DNA of 53,544 bases from Candidatus Moraniibacteriota bacterium (GCA_037201605.1 JBBCGM010000003.1:1-53544); one strand, 5' to 3'. Shown: positions 1,866 through 41,493, counted from the first letter of the stretch. Notes: generated by a model from the letters alone, not told the origin. Translations and numbers: made by a program.

Positions 1866-2978
1866 TTGATGCTTTTTTGTATGGCTCGTTTTTCCTCTCT
1901 CCCTTTTTCTCTCCAGCGCTTCATTCCCGAAGCGCTTGCGAGTAATCTTTCCCAAGACATCGGTATTGATCTCGGAACGGCGAACACTTTGGTGTACGTG
2001 AAGGGCCGCGGCATCGTGATTAACGAGCCGTCGGTGGTTGCGGTCAATCAGCGAACCGGGCAGATCCTGGCTATCGGTCGCGCTGCAAAAAAAATGGTGG
2101 GGAAAACGCCCAGCCATATTGTGGCAACGCGTCCGCTTGTTGACGGTGTGGTGAGCGATTTTGAGATCACGCAGCAGATGCTGCGCTATTTTATTAATAA
2201 AGTGACGCAGTCGAGTTTTTCCTTCTTGCGTCGCCCGCGTGTGCTGATCGGTATTCCTTCCGGCGTGACGGAAGTGGAGAAACGCGCGGTAATCGAAGCG
2301 GCACTGAGTGCCGGTGCGCGCCAAGCGTATCTGATTGATGAACCGATGGCAGCCGCTATCGGTGCCCGTCTGCCGGTAACGGATGCGACCGGCAATATGG
2401 TTGTCGATATCGGCGGCGGTACTACGGAAATTGCTGTCATCAGCTTGGGCGGAGTCGTGCTGTCACGCAGTCTGCGCATCGCAGGCGACGAAATGAATGA
2501 GGACATCGTACGCTACAGCCGAGATGAATTCAACCTGCTTATCGGCGATCGCACCGCCGAAAAAGCCAAAATCGCTATCGGGAGTGCCTACCCCCAGCGC
2601 GATCGCCTCACTTTTTCCTTGCGGGGCCGTGACCTGGTTTCCGGCCTGCCCAAAGAAGTAATTGCCAATGATGAGCATATCCGCGAAGCGCTGACCCGTT
2701 CCATCCGCGTTATTATCAACAATATCAAGACCATCGTGGAAGAAACGCCGCCTGAGCTCATTGCCGATATTATGCATCGCGGTATTATTCTTGCGGGGGG
2801 AGGCAGTTTGATCCGCGGACTGGACAAGCTTATGGCGACACAGACCGGTATGCCGGTACGCATGATGGAGGATCCGCTTACCGCCGTGGTGCGCGGGACC
2901 GGCATCGTTTTGGATGACATGGAAACCCTAAAAGACGTACTTATCGAAGAAGAAGCCGGCCGGCCGCTCGGCGGCTAG
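1866..2978 (+). CDS. mreB: Rod-shape protein MreB
   Basis: Intact ORF with DIGIDLGTANTLVYVKGRGIVINEPSVVA and actin-fold motifs. The true start is probably ATG 1881. Confidence 0.9.
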   Translation: MMLFCMARFSSLPFSLQRFIPEALASNLSQDIGIDLGTANTLVYVKGRGIVINEPSVVAVNQRTGQILAIGRAAKKMVGKTPSHIVATRPLVDGVVSDFEITQQMLRYFINKVTQSSFSFLRRPRVLIGIPSGVTEVEKRAVIEAALSAGARQAYLIDEPMAAAIGARLPVTDATGNMVVDIGGGTTEIAVISLGGVVLSRSLRIAGDEMNEDIVRYSRDEFNLLIGDRTAEKAKIAIGSAYPQRDRLTFSLRGRDLVSGLPKEVIANDEHIREALTRSIRVIINNIKTIVEETPPELIADIMHRGIILAGGGSLIRGLDKLMATQTGMPVRMMEDPLTAVVRGTGIVLDDMETLKDVLIEEEAGRPLGG

Positions 2979-2988
2979 GGAAATACGT

Positions 2989-3807
2989 ATGGCAGAACGC
3001 AAGAATCTTTTCCATAGGAAGCTTTTCTGGGCCACGCTTTTCGGAGCCGCTCTCACTTTTTTTATCTTTTTCCAGCCCGGCTCGGTGCTTCTGCCGGTGC
3101 GCGCCGTTTTGCTTACCGTCCTGTGGCCCTTCCAGAAAGTAGTGGCACCGGTCGCGTTTGAAGTGCGTAATCTGGGCGGTTTCTTGGGCAGCATCAGTGA
3201 TCTGAAAGAGCGCAATGAAAATTTGGAAAAAGAGCGCCGCGCACTTTTGGCCGAAAACGCGCGCCTCACTCTCCAGGTCAAGGAAAGTGAAGAAATCCGC
3301 CGGAGCTTCGATCTTTTGCCACGCGACCGTTTTGATCTTTCAGCGACTCGGATTATTGGACGCGATACGGAAAATGTTTCCGGCCTGGTCGAGATTGATC
3401 AGGGGAGTGCTGACGGCATTGAAACGGGCATGCCGGTTATCGTGGAAGCGGGCGTTTTGGTGGGGCGTGTGGACGAGGTACTCTCTCATTCTTCAAAAGT
3501 GATGATCTTAAACCATCCGAACAGCGTAGTGAACGGGGTAACGACCGCTACGGCAGCACGCGGCGTGGTACGCGGCGAGCATGGCCTAGGAGTCATCTAC
3601 GGCATGGTACAGCAAAATGCCTCACTCAAAGACGGGGACACGGTGGTGACTTCGGGCCTGGGCGGGAGAACGCCCGAAGGCCTGCTCATCGGTACTCTGT
3701 CGGAGGTCAAGCTGGCGCCCGACCAGTTATTTCAGCAGGCTACCATTCTTCCCCCGGTTTCTTATGCCGATCTGCGTTTCCTCTTTGTCATTAAGGGTAC
3801 ACGCTAA
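2989..3807 (+). CDS. mreC: Rod-shape protein MreC
   Basis: 272-aa ORF with N-terminal TM, coiled-coil (ERNENLEKERRALLAEN) and a beta-rich C-terminal domain. Sits between mreB and mreD. Confidence 0.85.
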   Translation: MAERKNLFHRKLFWATLFGAALTFFIFFQPGSVLLPVRAVLLTVLWPFQKVVAPVAFEVRNLGGFLGSISDLKERNENLEKERRALLAENARLTLQVKESEEIRRSFDLLPRDRFDLSATRIIGRDTENVSGLVEIDQGSADGIETGMPVIVEAGVLVGRVDEVLSHSSKVMILNHPNSVVNGVTTATAARGVVRGEHGLGVIYGMVQQNASLKDGDTVVTSGLGGRTPEGLLIGTLSEVKLAPDQLFQQATILPPVSYADLRFLFVIKGTR

Positions 3808-6920: not shown

Positions 6921-8516
6921 ATGTTTTGGGCAGATCGTGTTGTAAGCGAGATTAAACAGAAATATCAGCAAAAGATTGCTTCAGGCGAACCTCTTGTCAT
7001 ACGTGATGAAAAAACCGCCTCTGGCCGCGTGCATATCGGTTCTATGCGCGGCGTGGCAATCCATGGCGCTGTGGCTGAAATCTTAGCAACTGAAGGTATA
7101 AGCACGCGTTTTCTCTACGAGATTAATGATTTTGATCCGATGGACGGTCTTCCTGTCTATCTGGATGAAAAAATCTTTCGTCCCCACATGGGCAAACCGC
7201 TCTGCAATGTGCCTTCTCCTGATTCAGAGGCTAAGAATTTTGCTGAATACTTTGGAAATGAATTCAAGGCAGTTATTGAGCGAGCCGGATTTGCTCCTGA
7301 ATTTTATCTCTCAAGCGAAGTTTATAAGGCGGGTAAGTATAACGAGGTCATCCGCATCGCGCTCGAAAACGCTGCTAAAATTCGGGAAATCTATAAAAAA
7401 GTATCAGGGGCTGTAAAACCGGAAGACTGGATGCCGCTCCATGTCGTTTGTGAACATTGCGGTAAACTTGGTACCACCAAGGTTATTTCTTTTGACGGAG
7501 ATTTGGTGGAATATGTTTGCGAGCCTCATTTGGTGAAGTGGGCCGAAGGATGCGGGCATCGCGGGAAGATATCGCCGTTTGATGGGAATGCAAAATTTCC
7601 TTGGAAGGTTGAATGGGCAGCTAAGTTCCGCGTTTTCAATGTTTCGGTTGAAGGAGCTGGCAAGGATCACTCCACTCGTGGAGGCGCACGCGATATTGCT
7701 AACCATATCGCTCGTGAAGTATTCGGCTATGAACCGCCCTTCGATATTCCCTACGAATTCTTTCTTGTCGATGGTAAGAAGATGTCTTCTTCTAAGGGAG
7801 CGGGTTCTTCTTCAAAAGAAATCTCCGATCTTTTGCCTCCTCAGCTATTTCGTTTTCTCCTGCTCTCAAAGGATCCGAAACGAGTGATTGACTTTCTTCC
7901 GGATGGCGATACCATCCCGCTTCTTTACGATCTCTACGATAAGTATGCCGAGAGTTTTTTTGCCGGTCAGGATGATGACTATGCGCGCGCGTTTCTTTTG
8001 GCGCATGCGTCCCAAAAACAGAGCGATATCGTTAAACGTTTCTTTCCGCGTTTTTCACTCGTTGCCTTTCTGGTTCAGATGCCGCATATGGATTTCGAAA
8101 GCGAAATTAAGAAACTTAAAGGAGGAGATCTCTCAGAAGCTGATCTGGCGGAGGCGCAGGAGCGGGCGCACTATGCGAAGCATTGGCTGGAGGGCTATGC
8201 TCCCGAAAGCTACCGGTATACGCTCCAAACCGAAACGGTACCTGAATCTGCTCAGCACTTTTCTGCCGAGCAAAAGAAAGCATTGCGTTTAGTGCTGAAT
8301 TTTATTCAGAACAAAGAGACGTTGAGCGGCGAGGAGCTGCATGCCGAGCTGCACGGATTGAAAGAGCAATCCAGCCTTCCGCCAAAGGAGTTTTTCGGCG
8401 CTCTCTATTTGAGCTTTTTGGGCAAAGAAAGTGGCCCCAAAGCTGGCTGGTTTCTCAGTGTTTTACCGAAAGCCTTCTTGGAGCAACGCTTGCAAGAGGT
8501 CACGAAAGAGGAGTAG
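6921..8516 (+). CDS. lysK: Lysyl-tRNA synthetase, class I
   Basis: Class I motifs: HIGS (HIGH-like) and KMSSSKG (KMSKS-like). The ORF is open from 6837, but MFWADRVVSEIK at ATG 6921 fits the family N-terminus. Confidence 0.85.
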   Translation: MFWADRVVSEIKQKYQQKIASGEPLVIRDEKTASGRVHIGSMRGVAIHGAVAEILATEGISTRFLYEINDFDPMDGLPVYLDEKIFRPHMGKPLCNVPSPDSEAKNFAEYFGNEFKAVIERAGFAPEFYLSSEVYKAGKYNEVIRIALENAAKIREIYKKVSGAVKPEDWMPLHVVCEHCGKLGTTKVISFDGDLVEYVCEPHLVKWAEGCGHRGKISPFDGNAKFPWKVEWAAKFRVFNVSVEGAGKDHSTRGGARDIANHIAREVFGYEPPFDIPYEFFLVDGKKMSSSKGAGSSSKEISDLLPPQLFRFLLLSKDPKRVIDFLPDGDTIPLLYDLYDKYAESFFAGQDDDYARAFLLAHASQKQSDIVKRFFPRFSLVAFLVQMPHMDFESEIKKLKGGDLSEADLAEAQERAHYAKHWLEGYAPESYRYTLQTETVPESAQHFSAEQKKALRLVLNFIQNKETLSGEELHAELHGLKEQSSLPPKEFFGALYLSFLGKESGPKAGWFLSVLPKAFLEQRLQEVTKEE

Positions 8517-12355: not shown

Positions 12356-12916
12356 ATGCCCATCCCAGACCTGCTTGTTCAGAAGCGTCCTGATTTCGAA
12401 AAAGTTCTAGATCACTTTAGTGCCGAAGCGGCCAAAATCCGCACCGGCAGGGCTAATCCGGCGCTTGTCGAAGATCTTCTCGTCGATTATTACGGCACCA
12501 AGAGTCCGATAAAGCAGATCGCCGGCATTTCTATCCCCGAAGCCCGCCAAATCCTCATTCAGCCTTGGGACAAGGGGAGTCTGGTTTTTATCGAGACGGC
12601 TATCCGCGAAGCGGACCTGGGACTTAATCCCGGTAACGACGGCCAGAATATTCGCATCGTTATTCCGCCGCTGACGGAGGAGCGCCGTAAGGAGCTGGTG
12701 AAACAGCTGAATCAGCGGGTTGAAGAAGCGCGTATCAGCGTGCGCAGCCTCCGTGAAGACCTCTGGAAAGATATCCAGGATCTGGAGAAACAAGGAGAGA
12801 TCGCCGAGGATGATAAATTCCGCGGCAAGGACGACCTTCAGAAGCTCGTCGACGAATACAATCAAAAACTCGAAGACATGCGTCAGAAGAAAGAGGAGGA
12901 TATTCTGACCGTCTAA
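12356..12916 (+). CDS. frr: Ribosome recycling factor
   Basis: Intact 186-aa ORF with RTGRANPALVEDLLVDYYG. Confidence 0.92.
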   Translation: MPIPDLLVQKRPDFEKVLDHFSAEAAKIRTGRANPALVEDLLVDYYGTKSPIKQIAGISIPEARQILIQPWDKGSLVFIETAIREADLGLNPGNDGQNIRIVIPPLTEERRKELVKQLNQRVEEARISVRSLREDLWKDIQDLEKQGEIAEDDKFRGKDDLQKLVDEYNQKLEDMRQKKEEDILTV

Positions 12917-12926
12917 TCGACCTCGT

Positions 12927-14129
12927 ATGCTCACTATCCTCATTTTTATTCTTCTCCTCGGGCTGCTCGTCTTCGTGCATGAGATGGGCCATTTTCTCGT
13001 GGCTCGCTATAACGGCATCAAGGCTGACGAGTTCGGATTTGGCTTCCCGCCTCGTCTTATCGGAATAGTGAAAGACGACCAGACCGGCCGCTACCGAGTA
13101 GTATTCGGCAACCGCGACGTGCGAAGCACGCACACCGTCTATTCCATCAATTGGATTCCCTTGGGCGGTTTCGTGAAGATCAAAGGTGAGGATGCCGCCG
13201 CCCCTGGCGGTCAGGATTCTGACAGCTTTGCCAAAAAGCCGGCTCGTATCCGTATCCTCGTGCTCGCGGCAGGCGTGCTCATGAACTTTTTGCTTGCCTG
13301 GGTACTGATCTCGATTGTCTTCATGCTCGGCATCCCCGAGCCGATCGATGAACAGGATTTGGCGCAGCATCCGGATGCCCGTATCCAAATTCTCGAGATT
13401 GTTCCGCAGTCAGTGGCTCAGGAAATCGGCCTCAAGCCAGGCGATATCCTGGAACGCCTTGATGGCCAGGATGTGCGCTCGCTCGACCAGGTAAGCGGCT
13501 TCGTAGCGGCTCATCGCGGCCAGGAAATCCGCATCGAGCTCAATCGCTTCGGCGAGGAGATGACGATCACCGGCACGCCGAAAACCGAAGTGCGGCCCGG
13601 GGAGGGGGCGCTTGGTATTAGCTACGCCTTTACTGCCAAGGTCAAGCATCCTTGGTACCAGGCCATTGCTGACGGCGCTCGTGCCACGGCCAATGTGACA
13701 CTCGCTATCTTTGCCGCTCTTGGCAAAATGATCGGAGGACTTTTTGGAATAGCTGAGAAAACGCCGGTCGAGATTACGGGCCCCGTCGGTATCGTCTACC
13801 TGACCAAGCAAATGAGCGATCTGGGCTTTGCCTATCTGCTTCAGTTTGCCGCGCTCCTTTCCATCAACCTCGGCATTATCAATATTCTGCCTATACCGGC
13901 ACTCGATGGCGGCCGCATCCTGTTCGTACTCATCGAGAAGCTCAAGGGAAAGCCGGTGAGCGAGCGACTGGAGGGGACCATCCACCAAATCGGCTTCGCA
14001 CTCCTCCTCCTCCTTATGCTTATCGTCACGCTGCGTGATTTTCGACCTTCAAGATCCTCTCGCGCCTTGGCGGACTTTTTTCCTAAGCTGAGAAGTCTCT
14101 TTTTGCCGATAGTCCGAAAAAGCCTCTAA
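12927..14129 (+). CDS. rseP: Site-2 protease RseP family (zinc metalloprotease with PDZ)
   Basis: Intact 400-aa ORF with HEMGHF (HExxH), a PDZ-like middle region and NILPIPALDGG. Confidence 0.9.
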   Translation: MLTILIFILLLGLLVFVHEMGHFLVARYNGIKADEFGFGFPPRLIGIVKDDQTGRYRVVFGNRDVRSTHTVYSINWIPLGGFVKIKGEDAAAPGGQDSDSFAKKPARIRILVLAAGVLMNFLLAWVLISIVFMLGIPEPIDEQDLAQHPDARIQILEIVPQSVAQEIGLKPGDILERLDGQDVRSLDQVSGFVAAHRGQEIRIELNRFGEEMTITGTPKTEVRPGEGALGISYAFTAKVKHPWYQAIADGARATANVTLAIFAALGKMIGGLFGIAEKTPVEITGPVGIVYLTKQMSDLGFAYLLQFAALLSINLGIINILPIPALDGGRILFVLIEKLKGKPVSERLEGTIHQIGFALLLLLMLIVTLRDFRPSRSSRALADFFPKLRSLFLPIVRKSL

Positions 14130-14142
14130 TAAGGCTTTTTTT
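14117..14142 (+). terminator. Rho-independent terminator overlapping the rseP stop
   Basis: Stem AAAAAGCCT/AGGCTTTTT. The CTAATA loop region carries the TAATAA double stop. T run follows. Confidence 0.7.
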
Positions 14143-14166
14143 AACCCTCTTTACCCTATTGACAAA
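14124..14166 (+). repeat. Copy A of a duplicated terminator-loop/-35 module
   Basis: Collinear blocks CTCTAATAAG, CTCTTTA and CTATTGACAAA are shared with 17916-17947. Confidence 0.6.
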
Positions 14167-14186
14167 GTGCTATTTTTTGCTAATAT
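14159..14186 (+). promoter_or_regulatory. Sigma70-like promoter
   Basis: TTGACA, 16-nt spacer, TAATAT. Confidence 0.55.
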
Positions 14187-14216
14187 ATTGCGTTAACCGT
14201 TTAATGCAAGCATCCT

Positions 14217-14854
14217 ATGTCTCATGAGCTTCTTTTGGGGACACTTCGGCGTAAAGTCAGCCTGGCCGTACTCATCGGTCTGTTATGCGCTGCCTTCGGC
14301 TTTGCGGGTCTTATGCTTTTCGAGAAACGCTACCAGGATACGACTGACTTCCTGATCGTTCAGGCCAATGCCGGGAGCATGGACTTCTATACGCAGTTCA
14401 AATCTTCCGAGTATCTGGGCAACCTGCTTGGTGAGTCTATCCATAGCGAACGCTTCATCAATGCGGTCATCGGCACCGGCAAGAATCAATGCCGAGATGC
14501 TGCCTTTTGATAAAAAGAACCGTCTCGACGAATGGAGTAAAATGGTGCGCGTCAGCAAAAATCTCGAGCTCGGCGTCATCACCGTTACAGTCAAGTCAAA
14601 CAGCCAGAGTGACGCAGCGCGTATCATGGACGGCCTCTCAGACGTACTCATTCAACAGAACACCTGTTCCGCGGCGGCGATCCGGCAAGCGTCGAAGTGC
14701 GCGTGCTGTCCGACCGATCATTGAACGCACTCCGACAATGGAACAGCTCGTAAAGGTAGTCATCGCCGCCTTCCTGTTCGGTTTCTTCCTCGTCTATGCA
14801 ATTGCCCTTGCGCGCGCGTATCTGCGCCAGGAGCGCACCTTATGGCATCAGTAA
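14217..14854 (+). pseudogene. Wzz-like polysaccharide chain-length determinant (copy 1), at least 3 frameshifts
   Basis: N-terminal TM (LAVLIGLLCAAFGFAGLMLF), periplasmic region, C-terminal TM (VVIAAFLFGFFLVYAIALA). The reading passes through three ORF-track frames. Confidence 0.6.
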
Positions 14855-14870
14855 TATCTTTAGAAGCGTT

Positions 14871-14942
14871 TTTCCCTCCTCGTAAAAGAGAAAGAGGGAA
14901 AGTTTCTTTGGAAGGAGGGGAGTATCCGCTCCCTTCCTCCAA
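14871..14942 (+). promoter_or_regulatory. Two consecutive strong hairpins without a T tract
   Basis: Hairpin A is TTTCCCTC/GAGGGAAA (14871-14901). Hairpin B has a 15-nt purine arm, TTGGAAGGAGGGGAG, against CTCCCTTCCTCCAA (14908-14942). Confidence 0.45.
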
Positions 14943-15021
14943 GGAAAAGAAAAGAGAAGTAGCACCTTTCCAAATTACGTATTTTCTTCCCAATTCAGAT
15001 TCAGATTGAAGGAGAATTCAC

Positions 15022-16010
15022 ATGTTCAAGCAAGCGTATCTTGCCCTCGGGCTTTTCGCAGCGGTAGGCAACTCTGCCGCAGGAAGCCGGGGCGAAAGAC
15101 GCCGGCTTTACGATTGATCAGGAAGCGTCTGTCAAAGACAATTTCCTGGTTATCCAGCGGATGGAACCGGGCCTTAGTCTGGCCATCCGCGGAGACATTG
15201 CCGCTACTCAAGTGGTCGATGTCATCATGATTTCTCTCCCCTCTGTTGTCCCTGCCGAATGGTGGAGAGAGCTCTTGCACCGGATCCGGCGCGCACCGTT
15301 TCGGTGCCGTCAGGCGATGGGCAGAACTTTCTCTTCTCGCTCCACCCGAACGTCTTCCGCGCCCTTGTGGTGCGGTCGGACGGGATGTTGGCGGTCTATT
15401 CGGCAGTCCTCAATCCAACGCGTACTGCCTTTGTCGTGCTCTTGCCTCCGGGCAGCGAGTCGACTCTAAGGTCAGGGTGGATGGCCATTGTGTCAAACGA
15501 CGGCCGCTACCTGCTTACTCCGCAAGGAGAGAGCATCGATCTCAGGGAAACCAAGGGCATCAAGCTCCGCAAGGGGCGCATGTCTCAGGATTTCCTCGTC
15601 ACTCATCCGGCACCTCTGCCGCCGGTCGTCACGCTTACGCGGAGCGATCCGGAAACAAGGGTGTTCTGGCGTGACCTGGAAGCGCTCTTTCCGGAGCGTT
15701 TACGAGTCAATGGCACCTACTACTCTGGAAGTCCCTATGTAAAGGAATTTTTGGCGGCCTATACTCCGCTTAATTCCTTTGGTGATCGCGCGGTAACGTG
15801 CGGTCAATTGCGCATCGGCGGCATTGATCCGGCTTCGGCTGGCATCGGTGCGGCAGTATCCTTTATCGCAAGCCTCCCCAGCGTCCTCAAAAAGGACTGT
15901 CTGGCCGGCAAACGACAGGAGAAACATCACGAGACGAGTCAACGCGACAACCCTGTCGTGGCGACTCGCTCTGAGTCTGCCACGGCGCCCAAACTAGGAG
16001 ACGTATCATG
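15022..16010 (+). pseudogene. Secreted protein of unknown function (high-GC island gene 1), frameshifted
   Basis: AAGGAG RBS 7 nt before the ATG and signal peptide MFKQAYLALGLFAAVGNSAA. The reading continues into ORF 15259-16167 after frame switches. The 3' end is uncertain. Confidence 0.5.
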
Positions 16011-16461
16011 GAGTAACAAGCTCTTGCTCTGGCTGTTTGCCTGGGCAGCGCTGCTTATGGGCTTCGGCCTGTCGCAGCCTGCACAGGCAGCTGAGCATGT
16101 TGTAGACCGTGAAAGCGGGCGACACGCTCTACCGGCTTGCTGGCAAAGATTGGCGCGCTGTCTGTAAGGCTAATAGCCTTGCTGACTGTACCAAGCTTCA
16201 TGCCGGCCAACGGATCCGCATCGGTACTTCTTCTCCAGTAAACACAAACGACCGTTTCCGGTCGCCTGTCAGCTGGACGGAATGTCGACGGCTATCGTGA
16301 ATGGCGTGTTGTGGGTCTCAGGCCCATGATCACCTTTGAGGATGGTCGCTATCTCTCCCGAGCCCAAACCCTCGCTATGCGCGAGATGGGTCTCTCGGAA
16401 TATGAGATCGTGGAAAGTCAACCAGGCTCTTCGCGACAAAACTGCCGAAGAAGGCATATGA
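16008..16461 (+). pseudogene. Small secreted LysM-domain protein (island gene 2), frameshifted
   Basis: GGAGA RBS, signal-like SNKLLLWLFAWAALLMGFGLSQPAQA, then LysM-like KAGDTLYRLAGKDWRAVCKANSLADCTKLHAGQRIRI. Confidence 0.5.
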
Positions 16462-16470
16462 CGGCCCGGC

Positions 16471-17639
16471 ATGCGCTTCGAAGCGATGTCCTATGCCACT
16501 CGCACGCGCGTAGTGGTTCAGAAAAAGGTCGTCTACGTCGGTAAGGAAACGCATCGGATTTCCGTGTGCGCCTTTCTACGGTCGTATTGTCACAATTGTC
16601 GAAAAGTGTGCCAACGTGGGTCTCGAGACGGCTCCGCCGCCTCCGCCCATTCCCACTCCTCCGCCGCCGGAGGAAGAACTGCCGGTACCGCCTCTGGAAG
16701 AGCAGCCCTCGCTGCCTCCCGAAGAGGCACGCAAAGGCTGTTTCGACTGGAACGCGGTCGTAGGCACCGAGAAGGAGCTCGTCGGCGGTACTTCGCTTTC
16801 GGTTATGCTACCGGCGCTGCGTATCTCAAATGCTGGCGCGGCAAACACGGCATGCACGAACTGGGTATTGGCGGCAAAGCCACTGCCTGGAACGGACGTG
16901 TCGATCATGGCCGCGGTCGGTTATTCTGGCGACTGGTTCCAAATCGGGCCGGCCTACCAGTATATTGACGACAACTGCTGGAATCTCGAACTGAAGGCTC
17001 CCATGATCGGGCGCCTGAACGAGAAATTCCGTGAGGGTGACTATCGTTCGCACCGTCGTTTCACGACGCTTGGTGTGGATGTGAGCGCCAACTGGTACAA
17101 GCCCCGCTGCGAAAGCAAAAAGGGCGGCATCCGGGAAGTACAAGTGAACGCGTCGATCGGCGTACCGCTCAGTCGGTCTGTCGGCCATACCTGGGAGGGG
17201 AATCCATCCAGGACACGCGCGATCTCGGGAAGCTCGATGTGATTGCTCAAGCGGGCGTGCGGGTTTGGGTCGGTGGCGATGATCGTCACTTCCAGCCCTA
17301 CGTCCAGGCAGGCACATTCCTCGAGTCTCCTGGCTCATGGACCGGAATCGCTTCGGCTCGGCGCGTCTTTCGACAAGCACCGCTGTGTCGGAGTGCATTT
17401 CGGACCGAACTTCGATCTTCTCACCGGCGACATCGCACCGCTTGCGGTCGGGTCTTTGGTGGGACATTGCCTGCACTGCCAAGTCGGAGCGCTACAAGGC
17501 GCGCGACCAGCAGATCGATGGTTTCCCCAGGGGAACCTTCGACGGCGGACATGGGCTTGTGGTCGTATCTACGGATGCGCCGCAAGAAGCCGCTACCGCG
17601 ATCGGACAAGTAATTGCGGAAGCGCCCCTCCGCGAATAG
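16471..17639 (+). pseudogene. Proline-rich / beta-rich protein of unknown function (island gene 3), frameshifted
   Basis: Has a PPPPPIPTPPPPEEELPVPPLEEQPSLPPEE linker followed by a beta-strand-like region. Several overlapping open frames, ends at the stop at 17637-17639. Confidence 0.4.
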
Positions 17640-17785
17640 GGGTGAAAAGAAAATACGTAATGAAGAAGAGATAAAGGAAACTCAATACCACTGTATTCCT
17701 TTCGGAAACGGAAGGGATGCAAAAAACGGGCTGCAATCCAGAGGAGCAGAAGGCCTGCACCTCATGAGTTGTAGCTATTGCCGAT

Positions 17786-17803
17786 CCTCACACTAGTGTG
17801 AGG
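17786..17803. repeat. Perfect 18-bp palindrome
   Basis: CCTCACACTAGTGTGAGG is its own reverse complement. Confidence 0.9.
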
Positions 17804-17862
17804 AAAGGACCGGGGTGTTTCCAAAACCTCTTTTTCGTCCCCTCGCCGTATCATCGGCACCC

Positions 17863-17895
17863 AGAGCGTTTCTTCGGAGACGCTCTTTTTCTTTC
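17863..17895 (+). terminator. Rho-independent terminator of the island operon
   Basis: 10-bp stem AGAGCGTTTC/GAGACGCTCT with TTCG tetraloop, then TTTTTCTTTCTC. Confidence 0.8.
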
Positions 17896-17915
17896 TCAAA
17901 AATCTTAAAATAGGG

Positions 17916-17947
17916 CTCTAATAAGCCTCTTTATAGCTATTGACAAA
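17916..17947 (+). repeat. Copy B of the duplicated terminator-loop/-35 module
   Basis: CTCTAATAAG (17916-25), CTCTTTA (17927-33) and CTATTGACAAA (17937-47) are collinear with copy A. Confidence 0.6.
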
Positions 17948-17968
17948 AAATGAGCGAAAGGGTATAAT
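17940..17968 (+). promoter_or_regulatory. Consensus sigma70 promoter
   Basis: TTGACA, exactly 17 nt, TATAAT. Confidence 0.7.
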
Positions 17969-18059
17969 GGGGCGTTCGGGTGAAAAGCCGGACACCAGGT
18001 TCCATTCGGAATCATTCCATCCCGGAGTGGTTCCGGGTCAGACAAGGGAGAAGTCAGGC
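17969..18059 (+). promoter_or_regulatory. Structured 5' leader of about 85 nt (candidate cis-regulatory RNA)
   Basis: Hairpins GGTTCC-ATTC-GGAATC (17998-18013) and CCCGGA-GTGGT-TCCGGG (18021-18037). GGTG/CACC pairing at 17979-17996. The GGGAG RBS can pair with the upstream TCCC. Confidence 0.4.
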
Positions 18060-18546
18060 ATGCAGTACCTTTTCAAGACCTTTTTGCTCGCTGCCATCGC
18101 GGCCGCCTCGTTCGGCGCACCGGCACTCGCACAGCAGTCGACCGTCTCGACCAGGCCGGATCGGCCGGTCAGCGCCGTGACGCGCGCCAACAGCCCGATC
18201 GCCATGACGCCGCTCGACAAGCTCTCGCCCCAGGCGCATTGCTCGTCGGCCGGCTGTCACCTCGGTTTCGAGGAGGACCCGTCCGTTTTCGACGGCGCGC
18301 TCCTCTGCATGTCCAACATCGACGGCAACTGGGCGGTACGCAGGGACGGCACCTTCGATGATGTCAATCCCCGAACGGGCCGCCGTCTGCGCCCCGATCG
18401 TGAATGGCACCGCGGCGGTCACCGGCCGGTTCTATCCCAACGCGACGCCGATCATCGCCAAGAAGACGGCGGACGGCAAGCTGGTCGCTATCGCCTGGGC
18501 CGGTCGTGACCGTCTGGTCGGACTGCCCGCCTACACCGGCCGCTAA
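18060..18546 (+). pseudogene. Small secreted protein, very high GC, unknown function, one frameshift
   Basis: Signal peptide MQYLFKTFLLAAIAAASFGAPALAQQ. The frame switches near 18360-18400 into ORF 18358-18546. Confidence 0.5.
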
Positions 18547-18561: not shown

Positions 18562-18616
18562 ATCCGGTGGAGGGATTTGTATGCAATGCATGCGAATCTC
18601 TCCCGGATATTTTATA
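18562..18616. terminator. Long imperfect hairpin between convergent genes
   Basis: Arms ATCCGGTGGAGGGATT and AATCTCTCCCGGAT, followed by ATTTTATA on the + strand. Confidence 0.55.
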
Positions 18617-19986
18617 CCCAAAAATTTAGACACCCTTTTTTCTCTGCTCTGCGAGCGCGAGGAAAGAGCCGAGCAGGATGGAAAAAGAGCCATCCCACGG
18701 GCGTGTTTTTGAAAACGTTATCGGTAAGCGCTGATGCTTCGAGTGAGAGGAAGAGGAAGGAAGAGAAACCCGAAAGCCATTCGGAGCTGTGTATCAGGCT
18801 CGCGCAGGGCGCGTTTCCCGATGATCCAGGCAAGAGAGGCAAGATAGAGGAGAAAAGTAGCGAGACCGATAATGCCGCCTTCCACGAAGAACTTTACGAA
18901 ATCATTGTGCGGGTCGTTGGAGCCCAAGTTTTGTCCACGCAGGCTCTCAGAAACAAGGGGAAAAGTGTCCATCCCGCTTCCCAGAAGGGTGCGGCCATCC
19001 TGACGGGCCTTCAGGGTGACATCATGCCAGAGATTTTGACGCCAGACAATGGAGCTATCGGATTAGATCGGAAAGATTCCAAGACGCGGTCATGGAACGA
19101 GGCGGAGAAGAAAAGAGTACCAATGGCAGGAAAATGAGGGGAATAAGGAGTATGCGGTATCGGAGAAGAGCAAGCAAGAAACCAAACAGGAACAGCGCTA
19201 CCCAGGCACGCGCGCGAACGTCAGCAAGAGCATAATGAGCAATATGCCGAGAAAGATACTGAGGGTGAGGCGCTCGCTCCGCACTCGTGCGAAAGTGATC
19301 AGATACAAGAAGGCAAAGACGATGACGCAAAAGAGGTAGAGGCTGAAAATATTCGGGTGGCTGAAGGTACCGAAAATACGCGGAATGGAGACTGTTTCGT
19401 CACTGAAACCGATGCCGAAAAGCGTTTGGTAAAGACCGAAGAGAATGGGTAAAAGACTGGAGGCAAAAACCCCTGCGAGAAGCGTACGCGTATCTTCTCT
19501 GCTTTTGGTAAACGCATAGGCAAAAAATGAAAGAGTAAAGAGATCAAAAAGACGAAGAACTTCTCGCAGGGTGGTGCTGGCACTGATGGAGTAGAAAGCG
19601 GGTGGGTAAGTCCCCAGAGGATAATGAGTGCAAAGGGGAGAAGCAGGGGAAAAGAGAGCAGTTTGCGCCGCTGCCATAAGAGCGTTCCGACTCCTAAAAA
19701 GGCTACTGAAATGCCAACCAGCTGTGAGAGGGTGATGGAAATATCCTGGAAAGTGAACTGGAAAAATTCCGAAGAGTAATCGAGTGCCATGCGCACTACG
19801 ATCAAGAGTGCCAAGAGAAAAAGAGGTCGCGCGGCAAAAACAGTAACCGCAACTACCCCAAGTCCTGCTACGATGGGTATCACGATAGAGAAATGTAAGG
19901 CGACGAGAGGGCAAGGGTGGCGAGAAAAATGAGCCCTGCGCCTAGAGTCCAAAGATGTGTCGAGGAATCAGTGTGGTTTGTGCCAT
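18612..19986 (-). pseudogene. O-antigen ligase/polymerase family (Wzy_C-like) membrane protein, multiple frameshifts
   Basis: Polytopic protein with RIFGTFSHPNIFSLYL and HNDFVKFFVEGGIIGL motifs. Spread over at least 4 ORF fragments. Confidence 0.65.
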
Positions 19987-30512: not shown

Positions 30513-30602
30513 GAAGAAACTACAACATCCTCTCTTGAATACAGATTCACCTCTTGATTCTAAGAGCTCTTTGTGGTATTCTTTTTATTCAGAATATTCG
30601 CT

Positions 30603-32237
30603 ATGCTGACCGTCAAAAACATCCGCAAGAACCAGGGAGGCGAGACCGTCTTGAAGAAGGTCTCTTTTTCCATTGGAGAGGGTCAGAAAGTGGCGCTCGT
30701 AGGAGAGAATGGCGTAGGCAAATCCACGCTCCTCTCTATTCTGGCAGGTGTCGAGACAGCCGACCGTGGCCAGATCCTTTTGCCTAACCGGGTTCTGATC
30801 GGCTTTTTAGCACAAGAAATACTAGCTGAGAGTACGGAGACGCTCAACGCCTACCTGCGCCGCGCCGCCGGCCTCACGGCTCTCGAAGAAGAAATGGAGA
30901 GTTTGCGTCCCCATTTGCCCGAGCCGCATGCCCAAGAGCGTTTCGACCGAGCCTTAGCGTCCTATGAACGCCTCGGTGGGCATGAATTCGGCAAGCGTTC
31001 CCATCGCGTACTCCAGGGATTGCATGTCAAAGATCTTGGGTCCGATCGAGTGGTAGATACTCTTTCCGGCGGCGAACGGCGCAAAGTGGCGCTGGCCGGA
31101 GCCCTTCTTTCCGGTGCTGACTTGCTCTTGCTCGACGAACCGACCAACAATCTTGACGCCCCAGCCCTCAAGTGGCTGGAGGGATTTTTGCATACTTCCA
31201 AAGCAACCGTATTGGTGGCTTCTCATGACCGTACCTTCCTCGATGCCGTCGTTACCAAAGTGCTCGAGATCGACCGTGCCAAGCGTGAAACGACTATGCA
31301 TAACGGCAACTGGAGCAACCTACGATGAAACCAAGCGCCACCGCCTACGCCGCCATCGCGAGGAATACAATCGTCAAGAAGTCGAAAAGCGCCGCCTGTT
31401 CGGGAGCGGCGAAGAAAAGCGCGATTGGGCCGAGAAGGTGTGGGATCAGCCTGCTCCCGATACCGACAAGCTCGCTTCTCACTACAAGAAGGAGCGCGCG
31501 GCCAAGAAGTTCAGCGCCTCAGCTCGCGCGCTCGAAGGACGCGCCAAGCGTCACGATCGTATCGATGCGCCCTATGAGCGAATGCCACTGGTGCTTGATT
31601 TCGGCGCCGAGGCACTTGCAGGCAAAGCAGTCGTGAGCGGCAAGAAACTGGTTTGCGGCTATCCGGAAGGCTTTCACACGACACCTCTTACCTTTGCTTT
31701 CAAAGCAGGGGAAAAAGTAGCGCTCCTCGGCGACAACGGCGCCGGCAAATCTACGCTCCTCGCAACGCTTACTGGCACTCTGGCGCCCCTTGCCGGAGAA
31801 CTTTTTATAAATGAAAAAGTCCGTTTCGGATTTTGAACCAAGAGCATGAGCGTCTGATCCAAAGCGAGCGCGATAAAGTCAGAAGCATCTTTCACAAAGC
31901 GCTTGCAGATACTCCTGATTTCGACCCAGAGCGTCTCCCGTTTGTTTTCCATGAAGCCCGCCTACCGCTCGATCTCCTCGACACGCCGCTCCGCTTCGTC
32001 AGTCCCGGCGAGCGCGTGCGCATCCTACTCCTGCTTCTCGTGCTGAGGCGCGTCAACTTCCTCATTCTTGACGAACCTACTAATCATCTGGATCTTGAGG
32101 CTATCGAATCTCTGGAAGAGGCGCTCAACGCTTTTCCGGGCAATATTCTGCTTGTGAGCCACGACCGCCGCTTCCTAGAGTCGGTACATATCGACCGCAC
32201 TTTGGTAATGGAAGAGGGGAAATTTTCCAAGGAATAA
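30603..32237 (+). pseudogene. ABC-F family ATPase (two ABC domains, no TMD), two frameshifts
   Basis: GENGVGKST and GDNGAGKST Walker A motifs, LSGGERRKVALA signature, charged inter-domain linker. Confidence 0.8.
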
Positions 32238-32290: not shown

Positions 32291-33972
32291 ATGAAAAAGC
32301 AGTCAAAACTCCGCCTGAAATTCGGCGGTGTCCTCTTGCTGGCTCTTATCTCAGCCATCCTGAGCTTTCCACATCTCGTCGGCTTTATCCCCCCTCTTTC
32401 CCGGGCGATTAGCGGTTTGCATATAAACCGCGGTCTGGATCTGCAGGGCGGTATTCATTTGGAATACGCGGCCGATCTCAAAGACATTCCTTCGGAAAGG
32501 TGGATGACGCTATGGCCGCAGCGGAAGCTGTCATTGAGCGGCGCGTGAACGCGTTCGGCGTGGGCGAACCGCTCGTGCAGCAATCGCGCTCCGGATCGGA
32601 GCGTCGTATTATCGTGGAGCTGCCCGGCGTCAAGGATATCGAGCAGGCCAAAGAAATGATCAAGGAAACGCCGTTCCTGGAATTCCGCGAGCCGGCCGGC
32701 CCTGAGGTGCAAAAACAGATTGACGACTACAATGCCGAAACCAAGAAGAAAGCCGAAGAACTTTTGAAGCAGGCCAAGAGCGGCGCTGATTTCGCCCAGT
32801 TTGCCAAAGACAACAGCGAGGATCCCGGCTCCAAAGACCAGGGAGGGGAACTTGATTTTTCCAAAAAAGGCGCTTTCGTACCCGCATTCGACGCGGCGGT
32901 CTTCAGCGATAACTTTCCGAAAGGATCGGTGTATCCGGAACTCGTCGAATCCGATTTCGGTTGGCACATCATCAAAAAGATTGATGAACGGGGCGAGGGC
33001 GATAATCGTGAGGTAAAAGCGGCCCATATTCTGCTTACCAAGCGCTCGCTCAATGATTCGCCTCTCCTGGCTTACCAGCCGACCGGCCTTTCGGAAAAAA
33101 CCTCAAGACGCGTATGTTGATTACCAGACCCAGGGTGTCGGGTCACCGCAGATAGCGCTCCAGTTCGATGAAGAGGGGACGAAGCTCTTTGCCGACATTA
33201 CCAAGCGCAACGTGGGCAAGCCGGTCGCTATTTTCCTCGACAATGAACCGATCACTATTCCGACCATTCAGCAGGAAATCGTAAACGGCCAGGCGGTCAT
33301 TACCGGCGATTACACCTTGCCGGAAGCCAATGACTTAGTGAAGCGCCTAAACGAAGGTGCGCTTCCTGTACCGATTGAGTTGGTCGGCCAGCAGAGCGTG
33401 GATGCTTCTTTAGGGGAAGTGGCGCTCCAGCACAGCTTGCGAGCGGGACTTATCGGGCTTATTGCGGTAGCCGTCTTTATGCTCATCTATTACCGCTTTC
33501 TCGGCCTCATTGCGGTTTGGCGCTCCTTCTTTACACCGCTTTGCTATTTTCTATTTTCCGGCTCTCGGCGCTCACGCCTTTTCCTATTACCGTTACGCTC
33601 TCGGGTATTGCGGGCTTCATTCTTTCTATTGGCATTGCTGTAGATGCCAACGTCCTGATTTTCGAGCGCACGCGCGAAGAGCTCTCCTATGGCAAAGGGG
33701 CTATCAAATCCATCAAGGAGGGTTTCCGGCGCGCCTGGCCCTCGATCCGTGACGGCCATGTCTCGACGCTTATCACCACCTTCATCTTAGTCGGGTTCGG
33801 AACCGGCTTCGTAAAGGGCTTTGCCTTGATTCTGGCGCTGGGCGTTCTGCTCTCGCTTTTTACGGCAGTAGTCATCGTGCGTGTTACCATGGAATTTCTC
33901 GTGAGCGATTGGATGGAACGCCACCCGAAGGTGCTCGTCACTCCCAAGAAACCGCTCCCCAAAGAAGACTAA
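32291..33972 (+). pseudogene. secD: Protein translocase subunit SecD, three frameshifts
   Basis: N-terminal TM, periplasmic domain containing a PpiC-like insert, C-terminal 5-TM bundle (GIAGFILSIGIAVDANVLIFER). Confidence 0.85.
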
Positions 33973-33976
33973 GCAT

Positions 33977-34925
33977 ATGCTCCAAATCATCCAAAAAAGA
34001 ATATACGCATACGCCTTCTCCATCCTGGTGACGCTTGTGAGCATCGTGGTGCTTTTTCTGTGGGGACTGAACTTTGGAATCGATTTCCGCGGAGGAACGC
34101 TTATGGAAGTGCGCTTTGCCCTGAGTCCCGTGCCGGAAGTGCAAACCCTCGGCGCAGCGCTTGCCCCGCTTGACCTCAAGAGCCTTACTATCCAGCCTAC
34201 GGCGGAGGGACGGTCCTGCTTCGCTATTTGGCTTCCGATGAATCAGCGAACCAAAGCGTTTTGGAGAAACTCAAAGGCATTGACCCAGCGGTGACCCAGC
34301 TGCGCACGGACTTTATTGGCGGATCAGTATCTGACCAAATTGAACGCCATGCTATCCAAGGCACGATTCTCTCGATTATTGCTATCGCTCTCTATATTGC
34401 ATGGGCATTCGCGGGGTATCAGGGACCGTTACTTCGTGGGAGTACGGTCTCGGTGCAGTTATCGCGCTTGCGCATGACCTCATCATCACGCTCGGAGTAT
34501 TTGCGGTGCTCGGCCACTTTTACGATGTAGAGGTAGGCGTGCCGTTTATTGCGGCGCTGCTTACTATCTTGGGTTACTCTGTCAACGACACGATCGTGGT
34601 CTATGACCGCGTGCGTGAGAATCTCCAGCGCACCGGGCGCAAAGTCTCTTTTGAGAATCTGGTCAATCGTTCGCTCAACGAAACCCTGGGCCGATCCATC
34701 AACACTTCCATGACCGTTATCATTACCCTCATCGCTATCGTGATCTTCGGCGGCGAGAGCATACGTTATTTCGGCGTCGCGCTCCTGGTTGGCGTCGCCT
34801 TCGGAACCTACTCCTCGGTCTATATCGCTTCCGCTCTCCTGGTGACGCGCTATACTATGAAAGAACGAGCGAGAAAAGGCGAGCCGGGCCTCTGGTCTCA
34901 ACTTCGTGCCCGCCTGCCCTTCTAA
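33977..34925 (+). pseudogene. secF: Protein translocase subunit SecF, two frameshifts
   Basis: GIDFRGGT motif and LTILGYSVNDTIVVYDRVREN. Confidence 0.85.
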
Positions 34926-35255: not shown

Positions 35256-35694
35256 ATGGGAACGCATCTCCCCATCGCTATTGTCGCCTCATACCTCTTG
35301 CTGATTCGAGAAGGCAAAGTGCTGCTCGCCAAGCGTATCAATACCGGCTATTGGGACGATTACTACGGGGTGCCAGCCGGGCATGGAGAAGAGGGTGAAT
35401 CTTTTTCCGCCACGCTTATCCGAGAGATTGAAGAAGAAATAGGGGTCCGTCTGGACAAAGAAAATATCAAACCGGTCCATATCATTCATCGGAAAGGGGA
35501 AGACGGGTCTCTGCGTATCGAAGCATTTTTACAGCTGATGAGTGGACGGGGGATATCGAAAATAAGGAGCCTGAGAAATGCAGCGAGCTTAATTGGTTTC
35601 CCTTAACCGCCCTGCCTGAGAATACCATTCCCTATATTCGGCAGACGCTTCAGTGCATAAGTCAGGAATCTGGTATCGTGAAGAAGGCTGGTAA
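35256..35694 (+). pseudogene. NUDIX hydrolase (MutT-like), frameshifted
   Basis: Nudix box GHGEEGESFSATLIREIEEEIGV. Likely native C-terminus ...SGIWYREEGW, stop at 35692-35694. Confidence 0.7.
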
Positions 35695-35701
35695 AAAACC
35701 T

Positions 35702-36868
35702 ATGGAAAATAAGGAACAAAAAATTGAAGAGCTCTTGAGCCGCGGCGTCGCCGAGGTGATTGATCGTGAGCATTTGAAGGCGCGCCTGCTTTCCGGAGAC
35801 AAGCTCCGCGTAAAGCTTGGCATTGATCCGACGAGTCCTAATCTGCATCTGGGGCGCTCCATTCCGCTTTTGAAGCTCCGCGACTTCCAGGAGCTTGGCC
35901 ATACGGCAGTTTTTATCGTTGGTGATGAGACCGGCAGGATTGGAGATACTTCAGATAAAGAATCTGAACGCCCCATGCTTTCCGAAGAGCAAATAAAGGA
36001 GAATATGCAGACGTACCTAGATCAGGCTTACAAGATCCTTGATAAAGAGAAAACGGAAACTCATTATAATTCGGAGTGGCTCTCAAGGTTGGGCCTTATG
36101 GAACTTGCCAGAATAGCCAATCTTTTTAGCGTGAAAGAATTTGCCTCACGCGAGGTCATAGCGCGGCGCTTGGATGCAGGACAACGAGTTTCTTTTCACG
36201 AAATGATGTACCCTCTTTTCCCAAGGATACGACAGTGTGGCCGTAAAGGCTGACGTAGAGCTTGGCGGGACTGATCAGCGCTTCAATCTGTTGGCTGGTC
36301 GTCATGTCCAGCCAATGTACCATCAGGAGCCCCAAGACATTATGATGACCAACCTGATCCTTGGTACGGACGGGCGCAAGATGAGCTCGAGCTGGGCCAA
36401 TACCATCAACCTGACCGAAGCTCCCAACGATATGTTTGGCAAGGCAATGGGCATACCGGACGAGTTGATCGAATCCTATCTGATCCACTGCACGCGTATC
36501 CCATTGGAAGAAGTAAAAAGTGTCGTGGCTTTGCCGCCCCGCGATGCCAAGCTCTTTTTGGCAGAAGCATTGGTGACGCTCTACCACGGAGCCGACGCGG
36601 CTCAAGCAGCCAAAGAATACTTATTACCACTTTCAGTGAAAAAAAGGTGCCTGAGCAAGTGCCGGAAGTCAAAATCTCTTCAGAGATGCCACTTATCGAT
36701 GTTTTGGTAACGGCAGGGCTTGCTGAGAGCAAGAGCGACGCTCGGCGTAAAATCGAACAGGGAGGGGTATCTATCGAGGGAGAGAAGCTCAGTGATCCAG
36801 AAATGACCCTTCCTTCCGGTACCATACTCAAAGTTGGCAAGAAGGATTTTATCAAAGTCGTTTTCTAG
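35702..36868 (+). pseudogene. tyrS: Tyrosyl-tRNA synthetase, two frameshifts
   Basis: HIGH-like PNLHLGR, KMSKS-like RKMSSS, C-terminal S4 domain (ESKSDARRKIEQGGVSIEG). Confidence 0.85.
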
Positions 36869-40354: not shown

Positions 40355-41428
40355 ATGCGGATCGCCCTTGTCCATGATTATCTGGTCCAGTACGGCGGAG
40401 CAGAACGCGTGCTCGAGGCCTTTCGCGAACTCTATCCCCAGGCGCCGCTCTACACGCTTCTCTACGACCGGGAAAAAATGCACGGCAAATTCGCCGACGC
40501 CCGCATACACACCTCGTTTCTTCAGCGCCTGCCATTTTCCCGTACGCGCCACAGGCTCTTCCCCGCCCCTCATGCCGCTTGCTATCGAGCAGTTCGAGTT
40601 TGACCAGTACGATGTCGTGCTTTCCGATTCGTCAAGCTATGCCAAGGGCGTGATTACGGGTCCCGAGACGCTCCATATCTGCTATATGCATACGCCCATG
40701 CGCTATGCTTGGGATGACTGCCAGAAATACACGACCGATTTCGGTTTGCCGAGCTTTGTCAAACGCGCGGTGCCGTTCCTCATGAGCCCGATTCGTCTGT
40801 GGGGATTGGGCCTTCAGCTAAACGCATGGACCTGATCATTGCGAATTCCCGCTTCGTCGCGGGCCGCATCGCCAAGTATTACCGGCGCGATTCAACCATC
40901 ATCCATCCGCCGGTCAATGTAGAGGAATTTGCCGTAAGCGAGAAACGCGGGGACTACTTTCTCATGGTTGGGCGCCTCATGGCTTACAAGCGCCACGACA
41001 TCGCTATCAAGGCCTGTAATCGTCTCGGATTACCGCTGAAAATCATCGGCCGCGGGCCTGAATTTGAGCGCCTCAAGAAAATAGCCGGTCCGACGGTCGA
41101 ATTCCTCAGCCGCGTGCCGGATGAGGAACTCTCGCGCTACTATGCCGAGTGCCGCGCCTTTATCTTTCCCCAAGAGGAGGATTTCGGTATTGTGGCGATC
41201 GAAGCCATGGCATCCGGCCGTCCGCTTCTTGCCTATCGGGGCGGTGATATCGTTGAACATCTGCAGGAGGGCGTGACGGGCGAGTTTTTCGATGAGCAGA
41301 CGGTTGATTCCTTGACTGAAGCGCTCAAAACGTTCGTGCCTGAGTCCTATGATCCCGAAGCCATTCGGGCCCGATCGCTTGCTTTTGACAAGGAACGCTT
41401 TAAGGCTACAATAAGAGGACTATGTTGA
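40355..41428 (+). pseudogene. GT4 glycosyltransferase, copy 3, two frameshifts
   Basis: MRIALVHDYLVQYGGAERVLEA N-terminus and PQEEDFGIVAIEAMASGRP C-terminus. Confidence 0.8.
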
Positions 41429-41493
41429 ACGTGCCTTCCAGGCGCACGGGAAAAGCAGCAAACTTTCTGATCCTACCCCCTAAGAATTGCCGT

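Follow-up and report, generated by a model that had tools for sequence, protein, structure and literature searches.

In Escherichia coli OmpA, a β-barrel is joined to a peptidoglycan-binding domain through a proline-rich hinge. The OmpM and SlpA tethers of Terrabacteria (Negativicutes, Deinococcus, and Omp-alpha/beta of Thermotoga) combine an N-terminal peptidoglycan-binding module, a stalk and a C-terminal barrel that doubles as a channel (PMC10628300; PMC10160955). Here we describe positions 15022–18546 of a 53,544-nucleotide stretch of DNA from a Candidatus Moraniibacteriota bacterium (GCA_037201605.1 JBBCGM010000003.1:1-53544; the whole stretch is called the window below), a block in which the gene g548 encodes a LysM domain, a polyproline stalk and a predicted barrel within one polypeptide. 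A preliminary description, made from the DNA alone, had presented this block as a foreign-looking island of high GC that encodes four exported proteins. The best explanation overall, to which we assign a probability of roughly 0.55, is that of a native envelope operon of Candidatus Moranbacteria whose reading frames have been damaged by sequencing errors and which would encode a LysM-barrel tether module. The g548 family is undescribed. By uniting LysM and a polyproline stalk with a predicted outer-membrane-type barrel, it adds a new variation to the theme of barrels tethered to the wall, in a lineage from which no such protein was to be expected.

Conserved gene order and base composition of the block

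As laid out from the sequence, the operon comprises three genes on the plus strand, g214 (14217–14854), g312 (15022–15997) and g548 (16008–17639), and it begins upstream of position 15022, where its start had previously been set. The strong AAGGAG ribosome-binding site reported there is real (15009–15014, +, 7 nt 5' of ATG 15022), and g214 has a promoter-like site of its own (TTGACA-16-TAATAT with TG, 14159–14186, +), a consensus match alone at 10 of 12 positions. An intrinsic terminator at 17863–17895 (+; a hairpin at 17863–17886 with a 10-bp stem holding 5 GC pairs, then TTTTTCTTTCT) closes the operon. Behind it lies gD (18060–18546, +), which encodes a small secreted protein of about 160 residues and is served by a separate sigma-70-type promoter matching the consensus at all 12 positions (TTGACA-17-TATAAT, 17940–17968, +); terminator, promoter and secreted product had all been recognized in the preliminary description.

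A scan of species-representative genomes based on RseP, whose gene lies upstream of g214, returned 80 loci. The closest relatives of RseP are 54–65% identical, and many of them are labelled Candidatus Moranbacteria or Moraniibacteriota by several independent submitters; Moranbacteria belong to the Parcubacteria group of the Patescibacteria, or candidate phyla radiation (CPR). Some of the RseP loci, from one third-party batch, are labelled 'Bdellovibrionales' and are interleaved with Moranbacteria metagenome-assembled genomes (MAGs) at the same identity levels. Two loci, L001 (16 kb) and L006 (24 kb), hold in intact form a BNR protein, ribosome recycling factor (RRF), RseP (M50), g214, g312, g548, g198, g217, Wzy_C (minus strand), a methyltransferase (minus), a family 4 glycosyltransferase (GT4), an ADP-forming CoA ligase (minus) and a β-helix protein, an order collinear with positions 11.2–25.8 kb of the window. 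The central block is also present on a 7-kb JGI contig, with proteins of 224 and 289 residues, a 533-residue LysM protein, proteins of 196 and 219 residues, and Wzy_C. Altogether, syntenic copies were sought and found, with rseP on one side and the convergent Wzy_C gene on the other, in at least 17 species-representative Moranbacteria loci, and the same genes, order and frr/rseP neighbours recur in several metagenome contigs. The sole homologues detected for g312 pointed to metagenome contigs holding intact copies.

The cassette also occurs in other surroundings. Two distant g548 members, P0078 and P0118 (E 1e-28 and 8e-11), have a Wzz-like gene upstream and small proteins downstream. At locus L088 the middle gene is homologous to g312 (97% probability in hhalign) and is followed by genes for Wzy_C, a family 2 glycosyltransferase (GT2), a GT4 and a methyltransferase, and at locus L089 the cassette adjoins the ThrRS gene instead of rseP and has a middle gene not detectably related to g312. 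Throughout, g548 is co-encoded with a co-polymerase-like gene and usually with a lipoprotein, near surface-glycan genes. Such persistence of the trio in changing surroundings is an argument for its acting as one functional module.

The high-GC stretch on which the suggestion of foreign origin was based is genuine, and the percentages counted by hand for four 60-nt lines (63, 72, 40 and 55%) agree with computed fractions of 0.63 (15241–15300), 0.72 (18121–18180), 0.38 (7081–7140) and 0.53 (13021–13080). Positions 15022–18546 have a GC content of 58.5% (0.585), the highest of all 3.5-kb segments of the contig (mean 0.524, standard deviation 0.033); this exceeds the mean by a modest 6 points or so, and the regions at 38–41 kb and 43–44 kb also attain 56–58%. 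This maximum, a tetranucleotide correlation with the contig of 0.70 (mean 0.85, 8th percentile), and a perfect 15-nt inverted repeat that brackets g312–g548 are what one would cite for a horizontally acquired island, or a chimeric joint, carrying foreign exported proteins. The order of genes over both borders is nevertheless kept in the 17 or more related genomes, homologues were found solely in contigs of this lineage, and searches of the block turned up no integrase, tRNA or direct repeats at its flanks, so that it does not qualify as a genomic island. Furthermore, GC is raised in these genes in relatives as well (69% vs 60–63% in L001 and 60% vs 54–58% in L006), where the excess resides in codon positions 1 and 2 (GC1 and GC2) and GC3 equals that of the flanks. 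Glycine, alanine, proline and arginine together make up a fraction of 0.32–0.40 of the block proteins in relatives, compared with 0.23–0.30 in the flanks, and the GC excess is explained by this amino-acid composition. With synteny conserved across the borders, a GC excess in GC1 and GC2 only, and no mobility features, the island and the chimera are rejected as highly improbable, and these comparisons give us high confidence that the block is a native, vertically inherited envelope operon of Candidatus Moranbacteria.

The two arms of the inverted repeat (ATTACGTATTTTCTT / AAGAAAATACGTAAT, at 14974–14988 and 17647–17661) lie just 5' of g312 and just 3' of the g548 stop, both in intergenic DNA, and no further copies are present in the window (2 seen, 0.08 expected). 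The repeat was missing from the corresponding positions of L001, L006, L020 and L022, and its interpretation as transposon ends was rejected for this lack of conservation in relatives.

Origin of the broken reading frames

No reading frame of 15022–18546 is intact. Frames were checked by three-frame translation and by frameshift-aware protein-to-DNA alignment against the intact orthologues of L001 and L006, by which the block contains three genes rather than four, the supposed 'small LysM' and 'PPPP-linker' proteins being the two ends of g548. The g312 copy carries two frameshifts, near 15082 and 15265; its true stop is obscured, the frame continuing into the next gene to 16167, and the product, previously given as a signal-peptide protein of about 330 residues, is indeed exported but has a different frame and a length of about 300 residues. 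The g548 copy, of about 540 residues, is interrupted by some 10 frameshifts (near 16014, 16105, 16241–16256, 16416, 16567, 16793–16802, 16921, 17201–17207, 17344–17347 and 17450–17456) and one in-frame TGA. There are three further shifts in g214 (near 14484, 14662 and 14712), one in gD (near 18369) and six in the Wzy_C gene. Over 14.2–25.9 kb of the window, about 42 frameshifts are spread across eight genes, or roughly 1 indel per 270 bp, against 1–2 in-frame stops. The TGA at 16459–16461, the sole clear nonsense codon of the block, is aligned with Met in both orthologues and has no indel near it; either a substitution error or a genuine mutation might account for it.

Shifts of this density, lacking a clear tie to homopolymers and accompanied by an in-frame TGA, might be real and mark an envelope/glycan locus that is decaying to pseudogenes in this strain. 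Decay of one locus does not fit the remainder of the contig, however, where frameshifts also split SecDF (32500–34925), a class-Ib aminoacyl-tRNA synthetase (Tyr/TrpRS, 35678–36710), PheT (37960–39707 onward) and ThrRS (44.1–45.9 kb), all single-copy essential genes that are not dispensable to a living cell; an ABC ATPase (30573–31836) is split as well. The frame-corrected proteins are 50–64% identical to those of relatives and are conserved as well as the intact neighbours RRF (71%) and RseP (65%).

The distribution of the damage also speaks for artefact. The window reproduces GenBank record JBBCBH010012726.1 (GCA_037975565.1) in rotated form, window positions 1–28242 corresponding to record positions 25303–53544 and 28243–53544 to 1–25302. 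The frameshift-dense stretches of the window (14.2–25.9 kb and about 30.5–47 kb) form the outer thirds of this record, and its central 20 kb or so (window 47–53.5 kb plus 1–14 kb) is nearly clean, a pattern to be expected at the ends of a low-coverage long-read contig if they rest on single, uncorrected reads. The record stems from PacBio HiFi metagenomes of deadwood that were co-assembled with hifiasm-meta. In the source dataset the HiFi reads are over 99% accurate, with a mean length of 18.3 kb, and contigs recruit only 41% of them (PMC11613949). The contig ends are joined at window positions 28242/28243, and adjacency across this junction is not established.

Since essential genes are broken alike and indels greatly outnumber stops, we reject real pseudogenes as scarcely credible and attribute the frameshifts of the block, with high confidence, to sequencing errors. 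Two points temper this attribution: indels lie near homopolymers in 40% of cases vs 31%, an enrichment too weak for us to use as evidence of artefact, and the origin of the errors was judged from the contig sequence and orthologue alignments rather than from reads. Gene calls in the outer thirds of this contig, at about 1 indel per 270 bp, are unreliable, and those on other low-coverage contigs of the same assembly probably are too.

LysM domain, polyproline stalk and predicted barrel of g548

After frame correction, g548 encodes, in order along the plus strand, a signal peptide (16008 to about 16100), a LysM domain (16106–16222), a conserved α/β domain (about 16290–16620), a polyproline stalk (16634–16726) and a predicted 12-stranded β-barrel (about 16739–17490) with a C-terminal tail beyond it. 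In the window copy LysM (PF01476) scores 24.4 bits (E 2.8e-5) against a gathering score of 20.9, and the orthologues of L001, L022 and L089 score 22–29 bits. It is the sole family recognized in the block with Pfam, NCBIfam and PDB sequences, which agrees with the preliminary description; that account also spoke of a block of peptidoglycan-binding proteins, and this single LysM domain is all that corresponds to it. Export of the proteins, by contrast, is borne out by signal peptides or lipoboxes. The proline linker (PPPPPIPTPPPP...LPPEE), which forms a stalk of 30–50 residues, and the β-rich C-terminus had both been correctly noticed, though not as parts of the protein to which they belong.

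The sole source name seen for the family is 'LysM peptidoglycan-binding domain-containing protein', and no member has been characterized. In an exhaustive search with a hidden Markov model (HMM), 189 of 1.84 billion cluster representatives matched at E ≤ 1e-3, vs few matches in word-indexed protein searches, and two conserved g548 peptides gave no confirmed match among 185,579 species genomes, where the family is yet present by rseP synteny. The expectation that something undescribed is encoded here has thus held, as clear homology of all the proteins to a well-characterized family did not emerge.

The fold was predicted with AlphaFold2 (AF2) for the L006 orthologue, P0005, from a 9-sequence alignment; the mean predicted local distance difference test score (pLDDT) is 67.5 and the predicted template-modelling score (pTM) 0.47. 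The model has a signal peptide, LysM at residues 29–70, the α/β domain at 96–204 (pLDDT about 80), a disordered proline stretch of low pLDDT at 205–239, and, at 240–482, twelve long antiparallel strands (pLDDT 72–88) of 10–19 residues each with tight turns, beyond which lies a tail of about 50 residues. Foldseek against the PDB matched outer-membrane barrels only, with probability 1.00 for more than 25 of them over 260–300 columns. The top matches were BrkA (E 1e-7), AIDA-I (E 1.3e-7), EspP, Hbp and NalP, within E 1e-7 to 1e-5 and template-modelling (TM) scores of 0.4–0.5, and further matches included the COG4313 channel, PcoB, invasin and intimin. Hydrophobicity averaged over 58 family members follows an H.H.H alternation, with small or polar columns between and aromatics at the strand ends. 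On this model the C-terminal domain probably adopts a 12-stranded amphipathic β-barrel fold.

Several observations weigh against a barrel and would instead suit a soluble, wall-embedded or S-layer-type β structure, in which case g548 would encode a LysM-anchored wall protein of a monoderm cell and the AF2 model would have been over-read. The prediction is a single model from a shallow alignment, with the low pTM and TM scores given above, and in single sequences the hydrophobic faces of several strands, the first ones especially, are weak. Neither the window copy nor three orthologues matched Pfam outer-membrane β-barrel families, a profile search of the barrel domain against PDB sequences found nothing, and the tail deprives the protein of the terminal aromatic residue typical of substrates of the β-barrel assembly machinery (BAM). 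In addition, CPR bacteria are regarded as monoderm with S-layers (PMC12102498, PMC10160955). A soluble domain would, on the other hand, have to account for twelve strands of such length with tight turns at pLDDT 72–88, for the exclusive and long Foldseek matches to outer-membrane barrels, and for a dyad pattern of hydrophobicity, with aromatics at the ends of strands, that is conserved in 58 members, and we consider it rather unlikely.

Were the barrel real, it might serve export rather than tethering. Type Va autotransporters show the same order of signal peptide, N-terminal domains, linker and 12-stranded barrel and are also the best structural matches; an autotransporter-like adhesin would pass the LysM and α/β domains through the barrel to the cell surface as a passenger that binds host peptidoglycan or fungal chitin in epibiotic attachment. 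LysM binds polymers of N-acetylglucosamine (PF01476), and the sample is fungi-rich deadwood. CPR bacteria are moreover thought to be epibionts (PMC11665869). Among the window copy and three orthologues, however, there is no match to the Pfam Autotransporter β-domain (PF03797) at E ≤ 1, the linker is polyproline and not an α-helix plugging the barrel, and the barrel, followed by its tail of about 50 residues, is not strictly C-terminal. No BAM is known from CPR, and an adhesin would leave the conserved partnership with the Wzz-like protein, the lipoprotein and Wzy_C unexplained; we consider it unlikely.

Partner genes, proposed tether model and known systems

The g214 product, of about 214 residues with a hydrophobic segment at either end, shares 115/195 identities with its L001 orthologue and 122/211 with that of L006 in frameshift-aware alignment. 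The orthologues match TIGR01006 (CpsC) over nearly their full length with E values of 4e-10 and 3e-8, at 33–39 bits vs a cut-off of 296, and Pfam Wzz with E 3e-4 to 2e-2, under the gathering score; by these resemblances g214 appears to be a Wzz/CpsC-like polysaccharide co-polymerase. The exported g312 protein is β-rich, has two conserved Cys residues and carries a lipobox in 8/13 orthologues, making it a lipoprotein in most relatives. It had no match in Pfam or NCBIfam, nor did an 11-sequence profile against PDB sequences, and Foldseek found nothing under E 0.3 with a poor AF2 model built from 3 sequences (pLDDT 45.7).

The signal peptide of gD ends in ...APALA-QQ. The protein has a weak tblastn match to g217 of L001 (E 0.03) and clusters with 16 positional homologues (BLASTP single linkage, E < 1e-3), and by clustering and position it is assigned, as a diverged member, to the g198/g217 family of small secreted paralogues, which has one to four copies at this place in relatives. 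The spacer upstream of it (17640–18059) measures about 0.4 kb and is followed by one small secreted gene where relatives have at least two (g198 and g217); no g198-like remnant was found in the spacer, and Rfam had no match in the 5' leader of gD (about 90 nt) or in intergenic 17600–18100. A terminator-like hairpin at 18569–18603 separates gD from the convergent gene for the Wzy_C/O-antigen-ligase-like membrane protein (18650–19952, −), the conserved neighbour of the block.

We tentatively propose a mechanism, aware that it may well not hold, in which the Wzz/CpsC-like co-polymerase would sit in the cytoplasmic membrane and the secreted protein or lipoprotein of about 300 residues would be the second operon product. 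The LysM domain of g548 would bind the cell's own peptidoglycan, and the stalk of 30–50 residues would act as a stiff spacer of roughly 10–15 nm, a polyproline II helix rising about 3.1 Å per residue. The barrel would then sit in an outer lipidic or proteinaceous layer, so that the protein would tether this layer to the wall in the manner of OmpA, OmpM and SlpA, perhaps also forming a small channel. From the partners (co-polymerase, lipoprotein, Wzy_C, glycosyltransferases and methyltransferase) we infer that the module may help to assemble or export a surface glycan; the location of the barrel and its tethering role are likewise deduced.

Other evidence pulls the opposite way. Known polysaccharide export barrels have 16–18 strands, and a 12-stranded barrel is too narrow by comparison. 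The g312 protein lacks the Poly_export (PES) or SLBB signature of the outer-membrane polysaccharide export (OPX) protein Wza, its model being too poor for the fold to be judged. No BAM, Lpt or Lol genes were seen in the limited DNA examined, and CPR bacteria are considered to have no outer membrane, having lost it in the course of envelope evolution (PMC12102498, PMC10160955).

Two genes encountered incidentally have a bearing on the outer layer. At window 46592–47262 (+), a signal-peptide protein of about 220 residues with one frameshift ends in ...SLTWSF, an ending of the outer-membrane β-signal type, and resembles the TorF/Gcw_chp putative porins (TIGR02001 E 2e-7, PF09694 E 4e-4, both under cut-off); one metagenome scan returned no relatives of this TorF-like gene. 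L089 (on a 565-kb contig of GCA_018897195.1) has, at 2819–3751 (−), a gene for the MlaA (VacJ) lipoprotein (PF04333, E 5.7e-30), 3 kb from its distant Wzz-like/LysM-barrel cassette. In diderm bacteria MlaA resides as a lipoprotein in the outer membrane, and the two genes would fit the presence of proteins of outer-membrane type in these lineages; nothing on MlaA or BamA in CPR emerged from a literature search.

It is a doubtful but consequential idea that some CPR, Moranbacteria and relatives among them, possess an outer membrane-like layer with genuine barrels, in which the LysM-polyproline-barrel protein would be the peptidoglycan tether, forming with the Wzz-like co-polymerase and the lipoprotein a trans-envelope module not known before. 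If true, it would contradict the view of the whole radiation as monoderm and would bear on the loss or retention of outer membranes in Terrabacteria. A barrel in a lipid layer would require the monoderm label for CPR to be revised, and with the barrel elsewhere the protein would be a wall-anchored surface protein of a new kind. In both cases the family offers a testable handle on the composition and attachment of the outermost layer of these uncultured cells.

Some other features of the window concern related genes or its composition. Downstream of pheT, at 40799–41919 (+), a second GT4 glycosyltransferase and a Wzz-like gene (Pfam Wzz E 5e-5) suggest a second surface-polysaccharide locus. The order frr (RRF), rseP, two genes and the barrel protein at 12356–17639 is reminiscent of frr ... 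rseP - bamA in Proteobacteria; no homology was detected between g548 and BamA. The AT-rich stretch at about 45.5–50 kb (GC 36–47%) has the lowest tetranucleotide correlation of the contig, 0.45–0.55 (mean 0.85), and is compositionally far more atypical than 15022–18546; it contains short open reading frames, among them a SET-domain fragment (48735–49022), and the TorF-like gene.

Among known systems, the Wzx/Wzy-dependent modules, with a polysaccharide co-polymerase (Wzz, Wzc or CpsC), the OPX protein Wza and, in some diderms, a separate barrel, are resembled in the placing of a co-polymerase-like gene next to lipoprotein and barrel genes, and in the adjoining Wzy_C, glycosyltransferase and methyltransferase genes. 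They differ in that g312 has no Poly_export/SLBB and the predicted barrel is narrower than export barrels, and the loci examined revealed neither a flippase nor a kinase partner. The β-domains of type Va autotransporters (BrkA 3qq2, AIDA-I 4mee, EspP 3slo, Hbp 3aeh, NalP 1uyn) share with g548, as predicted, 12 strands and a barrel placed after other domains, whereas g548 is only 8–16% identical to them and has no PF03797, no α-helical plug, no large β-helical passenger and a 50-residue tail. Inverse autotransporters (intimin, invasin, YeeJ) have an N-terminal LysM and a 12-stranded barrel in common with g548, and the LysM of YeeJ reportedly binds peptidoglycan. Their structures 4e1t and 4e1s are weaker Foldseek matches (E about 1.5e-3), and they carry a long C-terminal Ig-like passenger where g548 ends about 50 residues after the barrel; a polyproline stalk is not known in them.

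OmpA differs from g548 in its inverted domain order, its 8 rather than 12 strands, its OmpA_C domain in place of LysM and its much shorter proline segment. With respect to OmpM and SlpA, g548 has LysM instead of SLH (to which it has no match), polyproline instead of a trimeric coiled-coil stalk, 12 predicted strands vs 16–30 and an additional conserved α/β domain, there is no sequence similarity, and the host lineage is thought to be without an outer membrane. What g548, as predicted, shares with these tethers is the logic of their design, in which binding module, stalk and barrel are combined in a single polypeptide.

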